Origin: a virus
Direction: 5' to 3' (one strand)
DNA: 25,764 bases
UHGV virus genome: UHGV-0116607
How positions within the stretch are numbered: the first letter of the stretch is position 1; every line of letters begins with the position of its first letter. Both the position numbers and the translations under genes were made by a program. The notes under the pieces were generated by a model. It was not told the DNA's origin, did no database searches, and saw only the letters and a list, made by a program, of their open reading frames with translations. Below, piece by piece: positions 1,475-25,578 of this stretch.

Positions 1475-2206
1475 ATGAAAGTTATCAAGTATTGGAAAGT
1501 TCAGCTTCTGCAGCTTTCTCAGCCTTCCGGCAAGCTTCCCGGCATTATCAACGCCCACAATCTGGTCGAAAGCCTGTTGTTTGAGGGGTACTCGAAAGAT
1601 AAACCGAAAATTAACCTCGGTTCCGGAGTAAATATTGAGTTGTTTACAGCGCCCGATTCGCTGGAAACCCGTATCTTTCGTAACCACCTCGTTGACAGTG
1701 TGCGTTGCTTCCCGGTGTTTGAATATGATGATGAAACTGACGGGACTCAGGAAGAGCAGACTAAGCCACCCTCACGCGAGGCCATGATTGAATATATCAA
1801 GCAGGCCATTGGGGAAGGCTATCAGCCTAAAATCTGCCATGAGCTCATTAGCAATCCTGATCTGCTTTGGCAGTTGCATGACGAGGCGGTCGATTATGAA
1901 TATCGCGCTTGTTGGCGCTGGTACCAAGAAGGCCATGGTTTTCATGAGACTTTTAGCGTCCCTGAGAAAATCCACGATCATTCCTGCGTTAACTGTTTTT
2001 CCGATAAAGGCCCATGCCTTGGTGACTGCCACGTTTCCGACGTTAATAAGGCTCGCAGCTCCTCCTTCGAAGACGTAGTGAATCCGGTAATCAAATGGCT
2101 TAACGAAAACGCCAACCCTCATACATCAGTGAGCATCGACGCAACCAGTGCTCAGCTGCTTACTGGTGAAATCGGCATTCACACGGAAGAGTTCATTAAG
2201 GACTGA
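1475..2206 (+). CDS. Hypothetical protein, acidic, Cys/His-rich C-terminal motif (putative moron / accessory gene)
   Basis: 243 aa from ATG with AAGGA ribosome-binding site; lower GC than neighbours; C-x2-C-x6-C-x3-C-H cluster (HDHSCVNCFSDKGPCLGDCH); lies between the lysis cassette terminator and terS; no family recognised by eye. Confidence 0.55.
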   Translation: MKVIKYWKVQLLQLSQPSGKLPGIINAHNLVESLLFEGYSKDKPKINLGSGVNIELFTAPDSLETRIFRNHLVDSVRCFPVFEYDDETDGTQEEQTKPPSREAMIEYIKQAIGEGYQPKICHELISNPDLLWQLHDEAVDYEYRACWRWYQEGHGFHETFSVPEKIHDHSCVNCFSDKGPCLGDCHVSDVNKARSSSFEDVVNPVIKWLNENANPHTSVSIDATSAQLLTGEIGIHTEEFIKD

Positions 2207-2271
2207 CCGGGCATTACAGGAGCCCTTCTCTATGAGGGGCTTCGATAATGTCAAACAGCAGGTGATTCAAC

Positions 2272-3315
2272 ATGGCAAAACCGGACTGGGGAGACCTCCA
2301 AAAACGGTTCCTGTCCGAGCATGCCAAAACCGGCATTTCTCCCAAAGAATGGTGCGAAGCGCAGGGACTGAATTACTCGACTGCAAAGCGCTATATCAAA
2401 ATTGCGAATGGTAGTGCGAATTCGCAAAAGAAAAGTGCGAATAAAACTGCGAATTCGCAAAAGGCGGATCATGCGAAAAGGAGTGTAAAGCCAGAGCCTG
2501 AGGCGCAAAAAAAAACTGCGTCAGAGTGCTCAATGCCTCCTCCTTCAGCTCCAGATGATTTCGGACTTTCCGACCAGCAGATGATATTTGCACAACACGT
2601 CGTCGATGGGAAAACCCGAGTAGATGCATATCGCCTTGCCGGTTATGCGGGGACGGGAAATGCCGCCTATGTGACTGCAAGTCAGCTCCTCAGAAACCCT
2701 AAGGTTTCACGCTACGTGCATCACCTGCGTAATGAGCGACAGAAGCGATACGCTGCAGAACTCGATGATGTGATCGGTCAGTTGACCGCAATCATTAACG
2801 CTGACCCAAACGAGATATCTCAATACCGTCGCGTTAACTGCCGGTACTGCTGGGGAAGCGATCACAAATATCAATGGCGAGATATCGCCGAGCAGCTATC
2901 CGCTGAGCGCAAGGCTGAATCGGATGGTACCGCGCCGCCAGATACATCCGGCGGAATTGGCTTTGTCGACAACGCCGATCCAAATCCTGAGTGCCCTCGC
3001 TGTAATGGCGAAGGGGTAGGAGAACCTTTCTTTGCTGACACTCGCGATCTTGAAGGTGACGCGCGCTATCTGCTGCAAGGTGTGAAGCTGGGCAAATTCG
3101 GGATTGAAATCCTGACTGCCGACAAAGACAGCGCCCGCAAAGAGCTGGCCAGACTAATCCTTTTGCGGAATACGAGCGAGCGTCAATCGCTGCTCGATGT
3201 AGAGCGTCTCGAGTTGCAGAACGAGAAACTACGTCACGAAATTAGTGCTCTGAGAGACGGCGACAAAGATAACGCGATCGTCGTACACAACACCCTGCCG
3301 ATACCTGGAAGATGA
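2272..3315 (+). CDS. Terminase small subunit
   Basis: 347 aa; AGGTGA ribosome-binding site; directly upstream of and abutting the large terminase; N-terminal region reads as a DNA-binding helix-turn-helix segment followed by a basic linker; C-terminal coiled-coil-like region. Family assignment not verified. Confidence 0.6.
   Translation: MAKPDWGDLQKRFLSEHAKTGISPKEWCEAQGLNYSTAKRYIKIANGSANSQKKSANKTANSQKADHAKRSVKPEPEAQKKTASECSMPPPSAPDDFGLSDQQMIFAQHVVDGKTRVDAYRLAGYAGTGNAAYVTASQLLRNPKVSRYVHHLRNERQKRYAAELDDVIGQLTAIINADPNEISQYRRVNCRYCWGSDHKYQWRDIAEQLSAERKAESDGTAPPDTSGGIGFVDNADPNPECPRCNGEGVGEPFFADTRDLEGDARYLLQGVKLGKFGIEILTADKDSARKELARLILLRNTSERQSLLDVERLELQNEKLRHEISALRDGDKDNAIVVHNTLPIPGR
2401..2466. 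repeat. 33-bp tandem direct repeat (2 units, about 25/33 identical), each containing the palindrome TGCGAATTCGCA
   Basis: Units 2401-2433 and 2434-2466; perfect 12-bp palindromes at 2415-2426 and 2448-2459; additional TGCGAAT copies at 2403 and 2436; encodes the duplicated peptide SANSQKK / TANSQKA within terS. Confidence 0.6.
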
Positions 3316-3316
3316 T

Positions 3317-4648
3317 ATGGCCGACATTTACCTCCCGACGCTGCATGACGGGCAGTTAAAGGTCTGGTCAGATTCCTGGGAAGGTCAACTGCACGCGGTC
3401 CGGTGTGGTCGCCGCTGGGGTAAGACCTTCATGCTTTCCAGCGCTGCGGTGACCTACGCTACAGCGCCGTTTAAGCGTCCGGGCATGGACATTGAACTCG
3501 GTGGCCGTGTCGGTATCTTCACAGCTGAGTACCGCCAGTATCAGGAGATCTACGACAAGCTCGAAGAAATCCTGCTGCCGCTGAAAAAGAGCTTCAGCCG
3601 GCAGGAAAAGCGCCTGCTGCTGAAGAACGGCGGGAAGATTGACTTCTGGGTCACCAACGACAACAAACTGGCCGGTCGTGGTCGTGAGTACGAAATTATC
3701 CTGATCGATGAGGCGGCGTTTACCAAGTCGCCTGAAATGCTGAAGGAAATCTGGCCGAAGTCGATTAAGCCGACGCTACTGACGACAAAAGGTCGGGCCT
3801 ACGTATTCTCAACGCCTGACGGTGTGGACGAAGAAAACTTCTTCTATGCCATCTGCCATAACAAAGACCTCGGCTTCCATGAGCATCATGCTCCGACGTC
3901 ATCCAACCCCTTCGTTCCTCCTGAGGAACTGGAGAAGGAGAGGGCCAACAACGACCCGCGCGTGTTCCGCCAGGAGTTTCTGGCCGAGTTCGTCGACTGG
4001 TCTGCCGCTTCGCTGTTCGACGTCCGCAAATGGTTCGAGGGTGAAAATCAGGATCAGCCTGTCGATTACCCTGAAATGTGCCAGGCCGTCTTCGCTGTCA
4101 TGGATACCGCCGTCAAAGGTGGATCAGAACATGACGGTACGGCTGTGGTGTATTACGCCGTCGACACCCGGCCCGGCATTCAGCGCCTCACCATTCTCGA
4201 CTGGGATGTGGTGCAGATTGACGGCGCACTGCTGGAGACGTGGATGCCGTCGGTGTTCGACCGCCTCAATGAGCTTTCCGGCCAGTGCGTTGCCATCAAC
4301 GGCAGCCTTGGCGTGTTCATAGAAGACGCCAGCATGGGCAGCATCCTCCTGCAGAAAGGCGAAAGCCTTGGATGGCCGGTCAACAAAATTGAGTCCGCCC
4401 TGACCAGCAAAGGAAAGGACGAACGCGCCATTATGGCCTCCGGTTATCACTACCGCGGGCTGGCGAAAATTTCCCGACACGCCTACGAGAAGACAGCCGT
4501 CTTTAAGGGCGAGACAGCAAACCATCTGCACAAGCAGGTTTCCCGATTCCACCTTGCCGACAAGAAAGCGCATAAGCGCGCCGATGACCTTCTCGATGAT
4601 TACACCTACGGGCTGATCATCGCCTTCGGCAGCGGCGACGCAATCTGA
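3317..4648 (+). CDS. Terminase large subunit (ATPase/nuclease)
   Basis: 443 aa; Walker A-like CGRRWGKT near the N-terminus; Walker B-like YEIILIDEAAF; immediately follows terS. Confidence 0.8.
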   Translation: MADIYLPTLHDGQLKVWSDSWEGQLHAVRCGRRWGKTFMLSSAAVTYATAPFKRPGMDIELGGRVGIFTAEYRQYQEIYDKLEEILLPLKKSFSRQEKRLLLKNGGKIDFWVTNDNKLAGRGREYEIILIDEAAFTKSPEMLKEIWPKSIKPTLLTTKGRAYVFSTPDGVDEENFFYAICHNKDLGFHEHHAPTSSNPFVPPEELEKERANNDPRVFRQEFLAEFVDWSAASLFDVRKWFEGENQDQPVDYPEMCQAVFAVMDTAVKGGSEHDGTAVVYYAVDTRPGIQRLTILDWDVVQIDGALLETWMPSVFDRLNELSGQCVAINGSLGVFIEDASMGSILLQKGESLGWPVNKIESALTSKGKDERAIMASGYHYRGLAKISRHAYEKTAVFKGETANHLHKQVSRFHLADKKAHKRADDLLDDYTYGLIIAFGSGDAI

Positions 4649-6908: not shown

Positions 6909-8531
<1,623 letters not shown>

Positions 8532-23593: not shown

Positions 23594-24186
23594 TGAAACC
23601 TGTTTTTGATGAAAATGGGCTGGCTACAGTACCGGGTAATATGCGTTGTTTTTATTATGAGGCAGTTACGTATGAATATACTGGCTGGTCTGATGAATAT
23701 ATTAATACTGGCGTAAGTATGCCCGCCTGTTCCACTGGTATTGACCCGGGCGAATACATTCCGGGAAGAGTGGCAGTATTTACGGGTAAGGGATGGAGCC
23801 ATGAAGAAGACCATCGCAATGAGACTGTTTACTCAACAGAAAATGGCGTAGCTGTTACAGTGGATTATATCGGTGCCATCAAAGACGGTTATGTCACGCT
23901 TTCACCGTTAACGCCATACGATAAATGGGATGGTGAGAAATGGGTGACGGATACCGAGGCACAGCATAGCGCCGCACTAGACGCGGCAGAAGTAAAGCGC
24001 CAGTCGCTGATTGATGCTGCAATGGCTTCCATCAGTCTGATTCAGCTGAAATTACGGGCCGGGCGGAAGCTGACGCAGGCAGAAACCACCCGACTTAACG
24101 CTGTGCTGGATTACATTGACGCGGTGGAGGCAACAGATACCAGCCCCGCGCCTGATGTCATCTGGCCTGAACTGCCGGAGGCGTAG
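23593..24186 (+). CDS. Tail fibre assembly protein (U-like)
   Basis: 197 aa; TAATG overlap with the fibre gene stop; C-terminus …LDYIDAVEATDTSPAPDVIWPELPEA matches the conserved tail-fibre-assembly C-terminal signature. Confidence 0.75.
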   Translation: MKPVFDENGLATVPGNMRCFYYEAVTYEYTGWSDEYINTGVSMPACSTGIDPGEYIPGRVAVFTGKGWSHEEDHRNETVYSTENGVAVTVDYIGAIKDGYVTLSPLTPYDKWDGEKWVTDTEAQHSAALDAAEVKRQSLIDAAMASISLIQLKLRAGRKLTQAETTRLNAVLDYIDAVEATDTSPAPDVIWPELPEA

Positions 24187-24597
24187 GCCATTCAATATCT
24201 GGCGCACTGGAAGTATCGACCAGTTCCAGTGCGCCAGATAATCCAGCCACAAATTATATTGCACCAGTTCCTCACCTTTCAGGCGACCAATCGCCGCTTT
24301 ACCAGGCCATTGCTTACTGTTTATGTATTCGTTGACCTGATTAATCAATTGCTGCTTTTTCAGTTCGGCTGCGGCAATTTGTTCCTCATGAGTTGGCGGT
24401 GGAATATCAATCCATGCAGGCATTCCGTCGATGACACCTCTGTATTTTCCTTCTGGTGCTTCCTTCATAAATTCGGCGGCAACAGTGTCGTCAATTTCGA
24501 TTCCATCATCGGGCCATTCGCCGGATTCCTGATAAGCGATTTTAAGCTCCACAGGGAAAAACGCATTTTTATCGGCACTGAAAATATATTTCTGCAT
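24052..24597 (-). CDS. Alternative tail fibre assembly protein (U'-like); apparent frameshift near the 3' end (possibly a pseudogene or homopolymer sequencing error)
   Basis: ATG at 24597; as read the frame runs to 24052, but the conserved C-terminal signature LELVDTSSAPDIEWPTPP is encoded in a different frame (encoded at about + 24180-24225, stop near 24160); a single missing G/C at about 24234-24235 would restore a product of about 145 aa. Confidence 0.5.
   Translation of the reverse strand: MQKYIFSADKNAFFPVELKIAYQESGEWPDDGIEIDDTVAAEFMKEAPEGKYRGVIDGMPAWIDIPPPTHEEQIAAAELKKQQLINQVNEYINSKQWPGKAAIGRLKGEELVQYNLWLDYLAHWNWSILPVRQILNGLRLRQFRPDDIRRGAGICCLHRVNVIQHSVKSGGFCLRQLPPGP
24196..24240. repeat. 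17-bp perfect inverted repeat with 11-bp spacer at the convergence point of the two tail fibre assembly genes
   Basis: TATCTGGCGCACTGGAA (24196-24212) … TTCCAGTGCGCCAGATA (24224-24240); lies just downstream of the U-like stop and inside the 3' coding region of the minus-strand U'-like gene. Confidence 0.7.
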
Positions 24598-24599
24598 TT

Positions 24600-24958
24600 C
24601 TACCGTCCTATCGAAATATAACTGAATCTGTATTGCTGTGAGATATCACTGGTTGCCACACGCCACGCTGAATTACTGATATGTTCAAAATTTACAGACA
24701 AAACCTGCGGGGCAGGACTCGACGGGTCTGACTGAACGGCATCAGACATAACACTGACTGAAACCATCGGCTGATTAGGGAATGGTATAGGGAAGTGTCC
24801 ACTGATAAAGCGGGTCGTGTTTCCTGAAAAAGTGCCAAACTGAACAATATATCCACCTGGTAGCCTGAACCATCCCGAACCAGAAGCGAATGCTCCCATA
24901 TCCGGTATCTGATTATCTCCTGTGCCCACATCCCTTTTCGCCGCTTCTCCCAAACCAA
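24600..24958 (-). CDS. Promoterless alternative tail fibre C-terminal cassette (S'v-like), expressed only after inversion
   Basis: Minus-strand ORF in frame with the fibre constant region across the recombination site (…GLGE|AAKRDVGTGDNQIPDMGAFASGSGWFRLPGG…); stop 2 nt before the U'-like ATG; no start codon or ribosome-binding site of its own. Confidence 0.6.
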
Positions 24959-24970
24959 CCTTTTTTATAA
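24945..24970. repeat. Right recombination site (hix/gix-like 26-bp site) upstream of the invertase gene
   Basis: TTCTCCCAAACC-AA-CCTTTTTTATAA; from memory closely resembles the hixL-type consensus; inverted relative to the left site. Confidence 0.6.
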
Positions 24971-25000
24971 CCATCAAAAATCTGGTGATGCTTCGCCGTT

Positions 25001-25023
25001 TCTCCTGTTTTCATAACAGGAGA
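25001..25023 (+). promoter_or_regulatory. Hairpin / palindrome covering the invertase ribosome-binding site
   Basis: TCTCCTGTT (25001-25009), loop TTCAT, AACAGGAGA (25015-25023); the 3' arm contains the Shine-Dalgarno AGGAGA, 7 nt upstream of the ATG. Confidence 0.4.
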
Positions 25024-25029
25024 AATCCC

Positions 25030-25578
25030 ATGATTTACGGTTATGCCCGAGTATCAACAAACCACCAGGACACTGAATTGCAACTAACGGCGCTCAAGTC
25101 AGCGGGTTGTGAGAAAATTTTTGAAGAGCATGCCAGCGGGAGGAAATCGAATCGGCCGGTTCTAAAACGGCTGATCGCCACTATGCAGCCGGGGGATGAA
25201 CTGGTGGTCTGGAAGCTGGACAGGATAGGCCGCAACGTTCTGCATGCGCTGTTGATGTTCCAGCAGTTACAGGAAAAGGGTATCAACTTCCGCAGTATTA
25301 CCGATGGCGTGGATCTCAAAACAGCCAGCGGCCGCTATAACTTTCGTAACATCCTTTCCGCAGCACAATATGAATCTGATCTTAATAGCGAACGTACCTT
25401 AGCAGGGCTGGCCGTAGCCAGGGCAAAAGGGCGAGTTGGTGGTCGCAGGCCTAAGTTCACGGATGAGCAATGGCGGGAAATGGGGGAGCGGATGGCAACC
25501 GGTGAATCACGACAAAGCGTATCAAAAACGTATGGAGTAGGGCTCTCAACTCTGTATAAAAAGTTTCCAGCTAGCTGA
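25030..25578 (+). CDS. Site-specific DNA invertase, serine recombinase (Hin/Gin/Pin/Cin family)
   Basis: 182 aa; N-terminus MIYGYARVSTNHQD with the catalytic Ser in the resolvase/invertase motif; C-terminal helix-turn-helix (…SVSKTYGVGLSTLYKKF); adjacent to the invertible segment. Confidence 0.9.
   Translation: MIYGYARVSTNHQDTELQLTALKSAGCEKIFEEHASGRKSNRPVLKRLIATMQPGDELVVWKLDRIGRNVLHALLMFQQLQEKGINFRSITDGVDLKTASGRYNFRNILSAAQYESDLNSERTLAGLAVARAKGRVGGRRPKFTDEQWREMGERMATGESRQSVSKTYGVGLSTLYKKFPAS

Follow-up and report, generated by a model that had tools for sequence, protein, structure and literature searches.

The small terminase gene and the repeats within it

The stretch of DNA analyzed here, hereafter the window, comprises 25,764 nucleotides of the virus genome UHGV-0116607, and our attention was focused on an array of short repeats located inside its small terminase gene, terS. 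Selection of viral DNA by small terminases is poorly understood beyond a few model phages. In the window, terS is preceded by a lysis cassette and followed by the genes for the large terminase and the portal (Table 1). A first-pass annotation of this DNA had assigned the repeats to a small terminase gene, and that gene call is right: the open reading frame (ORF) matches the Pfam family Terminase_2 (PF03592) at aa 103-312 with 50.1 bits (cut-off 26.1, E 5.7e-13), in a match that contains an insertion, and the PHROG family phrog_51, "terminase small subunit", at E 1.3e-56.

The first 43 residues of the protein (TerS) lie outside the Terminase_2 match. When the N-terminal 64 aa were used to search for homologues, the hits were short fragments (44-111 aa), for the most part truncated, and these served as a 30-sequence alignment for AlphaFold2 (AF2). 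The resulting model shows helices at residues 6-20, 24-31 and from 35 onwards, with predicted local distance difference test (pLDDT) scores of 80-86, an arrangement compatible with a helix-turn-helix (HTH) domain, while aa 47-67 score below 50 and are thus predicted to form a disordered stretch. The third helix, which is the predicted recognition helix, comes after a GLN turn, and only its residues 35-38 are called helical by DSSP. The Pfam family HTH_23 matches this TerS weakly, at E 0.16, versus 9.4e-5 for the N-terminus of PacA from phage P1, and the sequences of TerS and of the large terminase (TerL) found no relatives among solved structures.

Profile and pairwise comparisons indicate that the N-terminal HTH of TerS is homologous to the N-terminus of PacA. 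TerS aa 1-64 alone match the family phrog_1711 at E 1.3e-7, and aa 6-79 at E 7.5e-7; this family is taken to be that of PacA because P1 PacA scores E 4e-202 against it, with PacA of phage D6 at 3e-183. Reciprocally, the N-termini of P1 and D6 PacA match the terS families phrog_370 and phrog_51. Moreover, BLASTP aligned TerS aa 6-43 colinearly with P1 PacA aa 3-40 (38 aa, 29% identity, E 6e-5), bringing NYSTAKRYIK of TerS opposite NPNTARRYLR of PacA. The PacA protein of the P1-like phage D6 was reached by tblastn at E 9e-6, while a tblastn search with D6 PacA did not reach P1 PacA.

The coding sequence that follows the HTH holds a direct repeat of two 33-nt copies, 28/33 (85%) identical in the best register of a repeat search. 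The first-pass annotation had drawn the two units at 2401-2433 and 2434-2466, where its count of 25/33 identities is right, and the better register is the one spanning 2398-2463. Its two perfect palindromes (both reading TGCGAATTCGCA) and its TGCGAAT elements, at 2403, 2415, 2436 and 2448 and hence spaced 12, 21 and 12 nt apart, were found where it had placed them, as were the duplicated peptides SANSQKK and TANSQKA; the sequence at 2401-2463 is attGCGAATggtagTGCGAATTCGCAaaagaaaagTGCGAATaaaacTGCGAATTCGCAaaagg, and the region encodes ...IANGSANSQKKSANKTANSQKA.... An additional TGCGAA, absent from that earlier list, lies 24 nt past the second palindrome, and seven TGCGAA hexamers are found within 2403-2477 when both strands are counted. 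At up to one mismatch, the 25.8-kb window contains no copy of the 12-mer besides these two, with 0.11 occurrences expected by chance and none of 100 shuffled sequences reaching two. TGCGAAT is not enriched window-wide (9 found versus 5.2 expected), yet six of the nine copies fall inside 57 bp. The repeat search also paired 2423-2439 with 2504-2520, and the degenerate sites at 2502-2523 are possibly, and speculatively, a second, weak element.

Table 1. Positions of the repeats, of the parts of terS and of related features (positions in the window unless a locus is named; "." marks features without strand)
Feature	Position	Strand	Basis or remark
terS, small terminase gene, 347 aa: N-terminal HTH, disordered linker, Terminase_2 body	2272..3315	+	ORF, Pfam, PHROG
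Extra N-terminal three-helix HTH (aa 1-43), homologous to the PacA N-terminus	2272..2400	+	AF2, PHROG, BLASTP
Predicted recognition helix 3, aa 35-43 YSTAKRYIK (Lys-39 codon 2386-2388)	2374..2400	+	AF2, covariation
Putative exchangeable specificity cassette, helix 3 and repeat array	2364..2463	+	breakpoints at both ends
33-nt unit 1	2398..2430	+	repeat search
Half-site TGCGAAT	2403..2409	+	at the same position in 14/31 Lys-39 relatives
Palindrome 1, TGCGAATTCGCA, two abutting inverted TGCGAA	2415..2426	.	kept at gene nt 144 in most Lys-39 relatives
33-nt unit 2	2431..2463	+	28/33 identical to unit 1
Half-site TGCGAAT	2436..2442	+	read from sequence, relatives compared
Palindrome 2, TGCGAATTCGCA	2448..2459	.	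kept at gene nt 177
Extra (seventh) TGCGAA hexamer	2472..2477	+	common to L001, whose terS body is the same
Degenerate half-sites GGCGCA and CTGCGTCA around A9 run (2507-2515)	2502..2523	+	read from sequence; speculative
Low-complexity linker between the two predicted DNA-binding modules, aa 44-102	2401..2577	+	AF2 pLDDT, Terminase_2 start at aa 103
terL, large terminase, 443 aa, presumed nuclease/motor partner	3317..4648	+	Pfam Terminase_6N, E 5.3e-8
Non-coding TGCGAATTCGCA pairs in other loci	L246:4100-4520; L278:10411-10454; L318:3743-3786; L271:9842-9884; L328:8986-9028; L331:2521-2578	minus (L246)	

Constraint on the DNA and covariation of the motif with helix 3

To place the array among its relatives, homologous 5' terS regions were gathered from E. 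coli genomes, named phages, IMG/VR contigs and GTDB genomes, giving 128 distinct intact sequences. Residue 39, in helix 3, tracks the repeated motif in all 128 loci: Lys is found with TGCGAAT (31/31) and Arg with TGCGCA (97/97). Members of the Lys-39 class (A-K-R-Y-I-K) carry on average 3.0 copies of TGCGAAT and 1.9 of the 12-mers, with essentially no TGCGCA, while the Arg-39 class (A-R-R-Y-I-K) carries a mean of 5.0 copies of TGCGCA (range 2-10) and no TGCGAAT. The first-pass annotation had regarded the repeat number among relatives, and a possible lack of the repeat in close ones, as informative; copy number does vary, and all 31 Lys-39 relatives carry the repeat.

Nearly all of these 31 relatives keep the palindromes at gene nt 144 and 177, and many keep the half-sites at 132 and 165; the spacers between the motifs vary freely while the motifs do not. 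The linker dipeptide Ala-Asn is encoded by GCG-AAT in 93 of 99 cases, versus 1 of 29 when it occurs in the body of those genes, and the base ahead of the Ala codon is T in 96/99 versus 7/29; this invariant T occupies the wobble position of codons for eight different residues, among them Ser, Ile, Thr, Gly, Asn, Ala and Asp. Three loci (L003, L016 and L034) have a third perfect CTGCGAATTCGCAAAA 61 nt downstream, in another frame, where it encodes NCEFAK instead of SANSQK, and TGCGAA read in that frame ("CE") recurs at the same position in several otherwise unrelated linkers. Overall, TGCGAA was found in two reading frames and TGCGCA in all three (368, 108 and 19 occurrences). Motif density reaches 24-29 per kb at gene nt 121-330, versus 0.5-0.7 per kb over the remainder of loci about 3 kb long; in one of these comparisons the figures were 29 and 0.56 per kb. 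In addition, 20 distinct 200-nt sequences hold both 12-mers without a mismatch, and no compensatory changes between the palindromes were seen among these relatives.

Altogether, the sequence comparisons indicate that the constraint acts on the DNA and not on the protein, and the codon, wobble-base and reading-frame evidence excludes an explanation by protein-level selection or by neutral slippage. A repeat required as such by the protein was considered as a candidate and ruled out by the codon choice, the wobble T and the copies in other frames. The emphasis of the first-pass annotation on a 33-bp duplication needs adjustment, as the functional unit would be the hexamer or heptamer together with the 12-bp palindrome and not the duplication as such; likewise, the duplicated Ser/Asn/Lys peptide that it described is present, but arises as a side effect of the DNA motif.

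Helix 3 and the repeats lie side by side, which alone could account for their co-inheritance, and recombinants were therefore looked for. The first 99 nt of the gene, which encode helices 1 and 2, do not sort by Lys or Arg class. Nine Lys/Arg pairs, representing 5-6 backbones, share 95-99% identity up to gene nt 92-105, followed by 31-42% through nt 190, which places the 5' breakpoints in the turn just ahead of helix 3. On the 3' side, homology to E. coli prophages whose terS bodies differ runs as far as the last base of unit 2 and breaks off there (2463/2464). Both classes occur on at least three unrelated TerS bodies (Terminase_2, "PIRGSR...ALKHGGY" and "ILKPQHE"), whose partner TerL types differ, and no breakpoint between helix 3 and the repeats was seen in the nine pairs. 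With breakpoints closely flanking helix 3 on one side and the repeats on the other, the two move, as far as these alignments indicate, as a single cassette of about 100 nt between unrelated terminase bodies. The unbroken pairing of helix and repeats would be expected if the array is recognized by helix 3 and recombinants that combine a helix with the wrong motif disappear.

The pattern recurs, with further helix and motif combinations, in a divergent branch formed by the terS genes of Shiga toxin (Stx)-converting phages. Their N-terminal module is about 47% identical to the one studied here, and their linkers likewise hold repeat arrays right behind it. Genes of the GER2 type combine ARRYIKL with five to six copies of TGCGCA, and those of the Sakai/933W type combine ARTRIKM with four to five copies of (C/T)GATCAT at an exact spacing of 12 nt, encoding IDHEIDHKTDHEIDH. 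In the VT2-Sakai terS (L168:2120-2300) and in L172-L210 there are four (C/T)GATCAT, with five in L207, and two TGCGCA about 70 nt downstream. Moreover, the GATCAT repeats of the Sakai/933W type are Dam sites and resemble the Dam-regulated pac of P1. Literature searches on the mapping of Stx-phage pac sites found no paper describing these arrays as such.

The 12-mers were also followed outside the collected relatives, by an exact scan of IMG/VR for two copies 15-40 nt apart, which returned 102 loci. In 91 of them a PDWG...AKRYIK domain is encoded in frame directly upstream, the spacer being 21 nt in 89 of the 91. Five of the other eleven are still terS (one with a PDWG-to-SDWG variant, one frameshifted and three on the reverse strand), and the remaining six have the TGCGAATTCGCA pair in non-coding DNA, with spacers of 20-34 nt. 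In L246, L278 and L271 this pair lies about 120 nt upstream of a small, packaging-type ORF (124-aa type), followed by a DUF2280 gene; the small ORF has only a GNxNAxKHG motif in common with one type of TerS body, and its copy in L271 looks frameshifted. As read from the sequence, genes for an integrase and a MazF-like toxin are also present in L246, and L278 and L318 each have one for a large primase-like protein; none of these satellite-like elements showed a large terminase. The intergenic region of L246 holds TGCGCA twice, GTACGCA three times and TGTTAAGGTT twice. Elements of this kind could possibly be satellites carrying helper-type pac motifs of both classes, and we treat this as a lead; a literature search linking DUF2280 to satellites was uninformative.

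The array as a probable packaging signal, and other readings

The first-pass annotation had proposed the repeats as a candidate pac or regulatory site read by the small terminase, and the comparison favors that proposal through the constraint on the DNA, the PacA-like HTH, the covariation, the relatives and the variation in copy number. That the repeats are a DNA site bound by a protein is a reading we hold with great confidence. It is probable, though considerably less secure, that they form the recognition part of a P1-type pac site, with a new motif and with neither Dam nor integration host factor (IHF) sites.

In such a scheme TerS would possess two DNA-binding modules, the Terminase_2 body and the extra HTH on a disordered tether of about 55 residues. 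Helix 3 (YSTAKRYIK), with Lys-39, would read the hexamer TGCGAA, of which the array offers seven in 75 bp: four direct, two on the opposite strand within the palindromes and one at 2472. TerS is expected to form a ring like those of other Terminase_2 proteins, and this ring may dock several tethered HTH domains at once and so gain specificity through multivalency. The terminase would first bind concatemeric phage DNA at the repeats to begin headful packaging, TerL would then cut nearby, and packaging would run rightwards into terL. Since the site sits in the DNA that encodes the tether, helix 3 and its signal would travel together in the cassette of about 100 nt.

A broader proposal, which we put forward more tentatively, is that this portable cassette, composed of a PacA-like recognition helix and the downstream array that it reads, encoded in the same frame, governs which DNA is selected for packaging across a large group of temperate phages of enterobacteria and is exchangeable between unrelated terminases, with its variants forming a small protein-DNA recognition code and with satellites that may pirate it. 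The variants of that code would be Lys-39 with TGCGAAT, Arg-39 with TGCGCA, ARTRIK with GATCAT and, in P1, TGATCA, and the phage group may include Felixviridae-like myoviruses, many Klebsiella, Enterobacter and E. coli prophages, and Stx phages.

Several observations weigh against a role in packaging, or against a simple form of it. The only termini data found for close relatives, PhageTerm results on Nextera libraries given in the KlebPhaCol supplement for two Klebsiella phages, are ambiguous and disagree, with RothC called "Undetermined; permutated" and RothD "COS (5')", and no mapped set of packaging ends was found for any phage with this module. A Yersinia phage paper came without termini analysis, and a literature search for the exact 12-mer turned up nothing beyond an unrelated paper on NRF1. 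No more than about 15 nt separate helix 3 from the repeats and the exchanges number 5-6 events, such that linkage could yield much of the covariation. P1 combines ARRYL with TGATCA, and there can thus be no simple one-residue code; similarly, Stx phages of the Sakai type hold both GATCAT and TGCGCA clusters, which a model of one helix and one motif fails to explain. Elements known from P1 are also missing: GATC is absent from the motif, the sole nearby copy (2467-2470) lying outside it, the IHF consensus WATCAANNNNTTR was found nowhere in terS at up to one mismatch, and the window has no clear second hexamer cluster beyond the single hexamer at 2472 and the degenerate sites at 2502-2523. Many relatives with other bodies carry a further site about 61 nt downstream. 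Finally, the HTH model had no significant match among solved structures in a Foldseek search (best PDB hit E 0.46), the top hits all being HTH domains.

Among the alternatives, an operator role deserves most attention, in which the HTH of TerS or another regulator, e.g., a Rha-type protein, would control terS and terL by autoregulation or as a roadblock. The constraint on the DNA and the covariation point to binding and not to its purpose, 12-bp palindromes placed 33 bp apart are typical of the operators of dimeric repressors, and Rha-family genes lie directly upstream of terS in L001 and L003. However, the upstream gene varies (it is a 263-aa ORF in the window) while the motif tracks helix 3 of TerS, and a promoter scan found no promoter-like site in 2000-3400; the promoter and terminator scan gave nothing meaningful overall, as its sole "terminator" match was the palindrome itself, on the minus strand. 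Moreover, the homologous domain of P1 belongs to the pacase, whose hexamers are the pac site, and in the sampled loci the module is the N-terminus of a small terminase, as in 91 of the 102 loci with the palindrome pair, and never a free-standing regulator. Because of this strict association and of the PacA homology, we consider an operator unlikely. Regulation could also be exerted on the RNA, if 2415-2426 paired with 2448-2459 in the terS mRNA to tune its translation or stability, and the predicted fold of 2390-2475 (-25.1 kcal/mol, z -3.2), together with z values of about -3 to -5 for both motif classes across relatives, would fit such an element. Any array of palindromic DNA sites gives scores of this kind, however, and a low folding energy is then an expected by-product. 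It is the sequence that is conserved and not the pairing, as the perfect 12-mers and the lack of compensatory changes described above indicate; arrays of the Arg class are direct hexamers of variable number (2-10) and arrangement, with no common fold, and the same palindromes stand in non-coding DNA in either orientation. An RNA element is therefore very improbable.

Two further alternatives were considered. If the motifs were patches of short homology for the shuffling of terminase modules, mosaic junctions would coincide with the array, as they do at its end (2463/2464), but the 5' junctions lie upstream of helix 3, outside the repeats, and homology patches need neither covariation with a helix residue nor restriction to one place per genome; we rather attribute the junctions at the array to the presence of conserved sites where two domains meet, and give a recombination hotspot hardly any credence. 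The linker, for its part, is predicted to be disordered, differs in copy number among relatives and lies near A-runs associated with many frameshifted database entries, all of which would suit a slippage-prone, low-complexity segment duplicated neutrally and serving at most as a flexible Ser/Asn/Lys tether. Codons and wobble bases that stay invariant across different amino acids, motifs that recur in other reading frames and persist while the spacers between them vary, and a perfect covariation with helix 3 make this the least probable of the explanations considered.

If the packaging role proposed for the cassette is true, pac could be read from sequence in a set of gut and clinical prophages that includes relatives of the newly proposed Felixviridae as well as Stx-converting phages. 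It would also predict which phages package each other's DNA or mobilize satellites, and the direction of lateral transduction from these prophages. Residue 39 would provide a natural one-residue switch (Lys/Arg), with matching sites, for the study of DNA recognition by TerS, and a cassette of this small size could retarget packaging in engineered transducing particles, in line with the recoded P1 pac (PMC10028697).

Other features of the locus and of the window were observed alongside. The terL gene has about 90% nucleotide identity to terL of the Klebsiella phages RothC, RothD and Chronis. RothC (L006) and E. coli KCJ3K291 combine the same TerL type with an unrelated 246-aa TerS body bearing the same N-terminal cassette, and one TerL type thus works with two unrelated TerS bodies. 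The insertion in the Terminase_2 body, at 2839-3003, contains two CxxC pairs (NCRYCWG ... ECPRCNG) with the look of a zinc ribbon and splits the Pfam match, the model of 141 positions being spread over aa 103-312. The A9 run at 2507-2515 and other long A-runs sit in linker-coding DNA (also in L094, L100, L150 and L160, and among proteins P0001-P0120), and just past the repeats many database entries, as well as several genomes, show frameshifts or truncations that leave HTH-only products of 44-111 aa; these could reflect homopolymer sequencing error, decay, or slippage that yields a free HTH domain. Elsewhere, in the head-gene block, a 539-aa ORF (6912-8531) combines an N-terminal NUDIX hydrolase domain (Pfam E 1.2e-16) with Ala/Glu/Lys-rich repeats, including tandem repeats at 7982-8046, and resembles a fusion between a NUDIX domain and a scaffold-like protein. 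Past the tail-fibre-like block, a Hin/Gin/Cin-type serine invertase (Resolvase and HTH_7; 24922-25578) lies beside oppositely oriented ORFs, and 24052-25578 may be read from its gene content as a host-range segment that can invert, as in Mu and P1.

Comparison with P1 pac and with other packaging systems

P1 provides the closest comparison. Its pac is an experimentally defined 161-bp site with seven hexamers (HEX4 and HEX3) bound by the pacase (PMC10028697; also PMC11260489), and P1 packaging fell about 9-fold when the hexamers were mutated synonymously (PMC10028697). In the annotated P1 genome, pacA starts at 90529 and TGATCA/G is found at gene nt 194, 201, 213, 228, 324, 336, 347 and 375, with the primary cleavage sites annotated at pacA nt 276-285, flanked by hexamers and beside an IHF site. 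The array in terS resembles this arrangement in that about seven hexamers of the TG..CA type directly follow the HTH in the same gene and at an equivalent position (terS nt 132-206, versus pacA nt 194-380), spacings of about 12 nt are common, and there is one site per genome. Unlike in P1, the motif is TGCGAA or TGCGAATTCGCA and not TGATCA/G; as TGCGAATTCGCA contains no GATC, it holds no Dam sites and would be devoid of a methylation switch. Beyond the N-terminal domain, BLASTP found no similarity between the bodies of TerS and PacA (E 0.38) or between TerL and PacB (E 0.26). In D6, the pacA gene (L167:2001-2420) has the HTH in common, and its 5' region is without TGATCA hexamers, showing instead TGCGGTCGCA right after the HTH and scattered GATC at gene nt 316-400; from these features, the pac elements of D6 may differ from those of P1.

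The Stx phages described above differ from the phage in the window in their motifs, helix 3 sequences and TerS bodies. With SPP1/SF6 (G1P) the resemblance lies in the Terminase_2 body, and the pac of those phages (pacL/pacR) overlaps the start of the terS gene. For SF6 and SPP1, a ring of HTH motifs is described as touching DNA at several points, the HTH being in the body only and the contacts sequence-independent (PMC4737164), whereas the TerS studied here has a further HTH, PacA-like and tethered, that comes with a repeat array of its own.

In P22 and Sf6-type phages, the packaging signal is likewise embedded in terS, and terS is mosaic among relatives, but their TerS proteins are unrelated to this N-terminal module, apart from the fusion in L084. 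Small terminases of the Sf6 gp1 type normally have their own N-terminal DNA-binding domain and an internal pac; in L084 (IMGVR_UViG_2887857370_000002; terS from locus nt 1501), an Arg-class cassette, with the HTH and six TGCGCA, stands before such a TerS. The pac of P22 is a single asymmetric site, with host look-alikes of a 17-nt consensus, and not a repeat array, while the pac site of ES18 is described as still unknown (PMC11260489). A coverage peak inside an Sf6-type terS has been mapped in the E. coli LF82 prophage Gally (PMC9928086), and the TerS of Gally is of the Sf6 type, without this module. Based on these comparisons, the element in UHGV-0116607 would best be described as a variant of the P1-type pac arrangement, in which a PacA-like HTH and its cognate hexamer array appear to be grafted onto a Terminase_2 small terminase.

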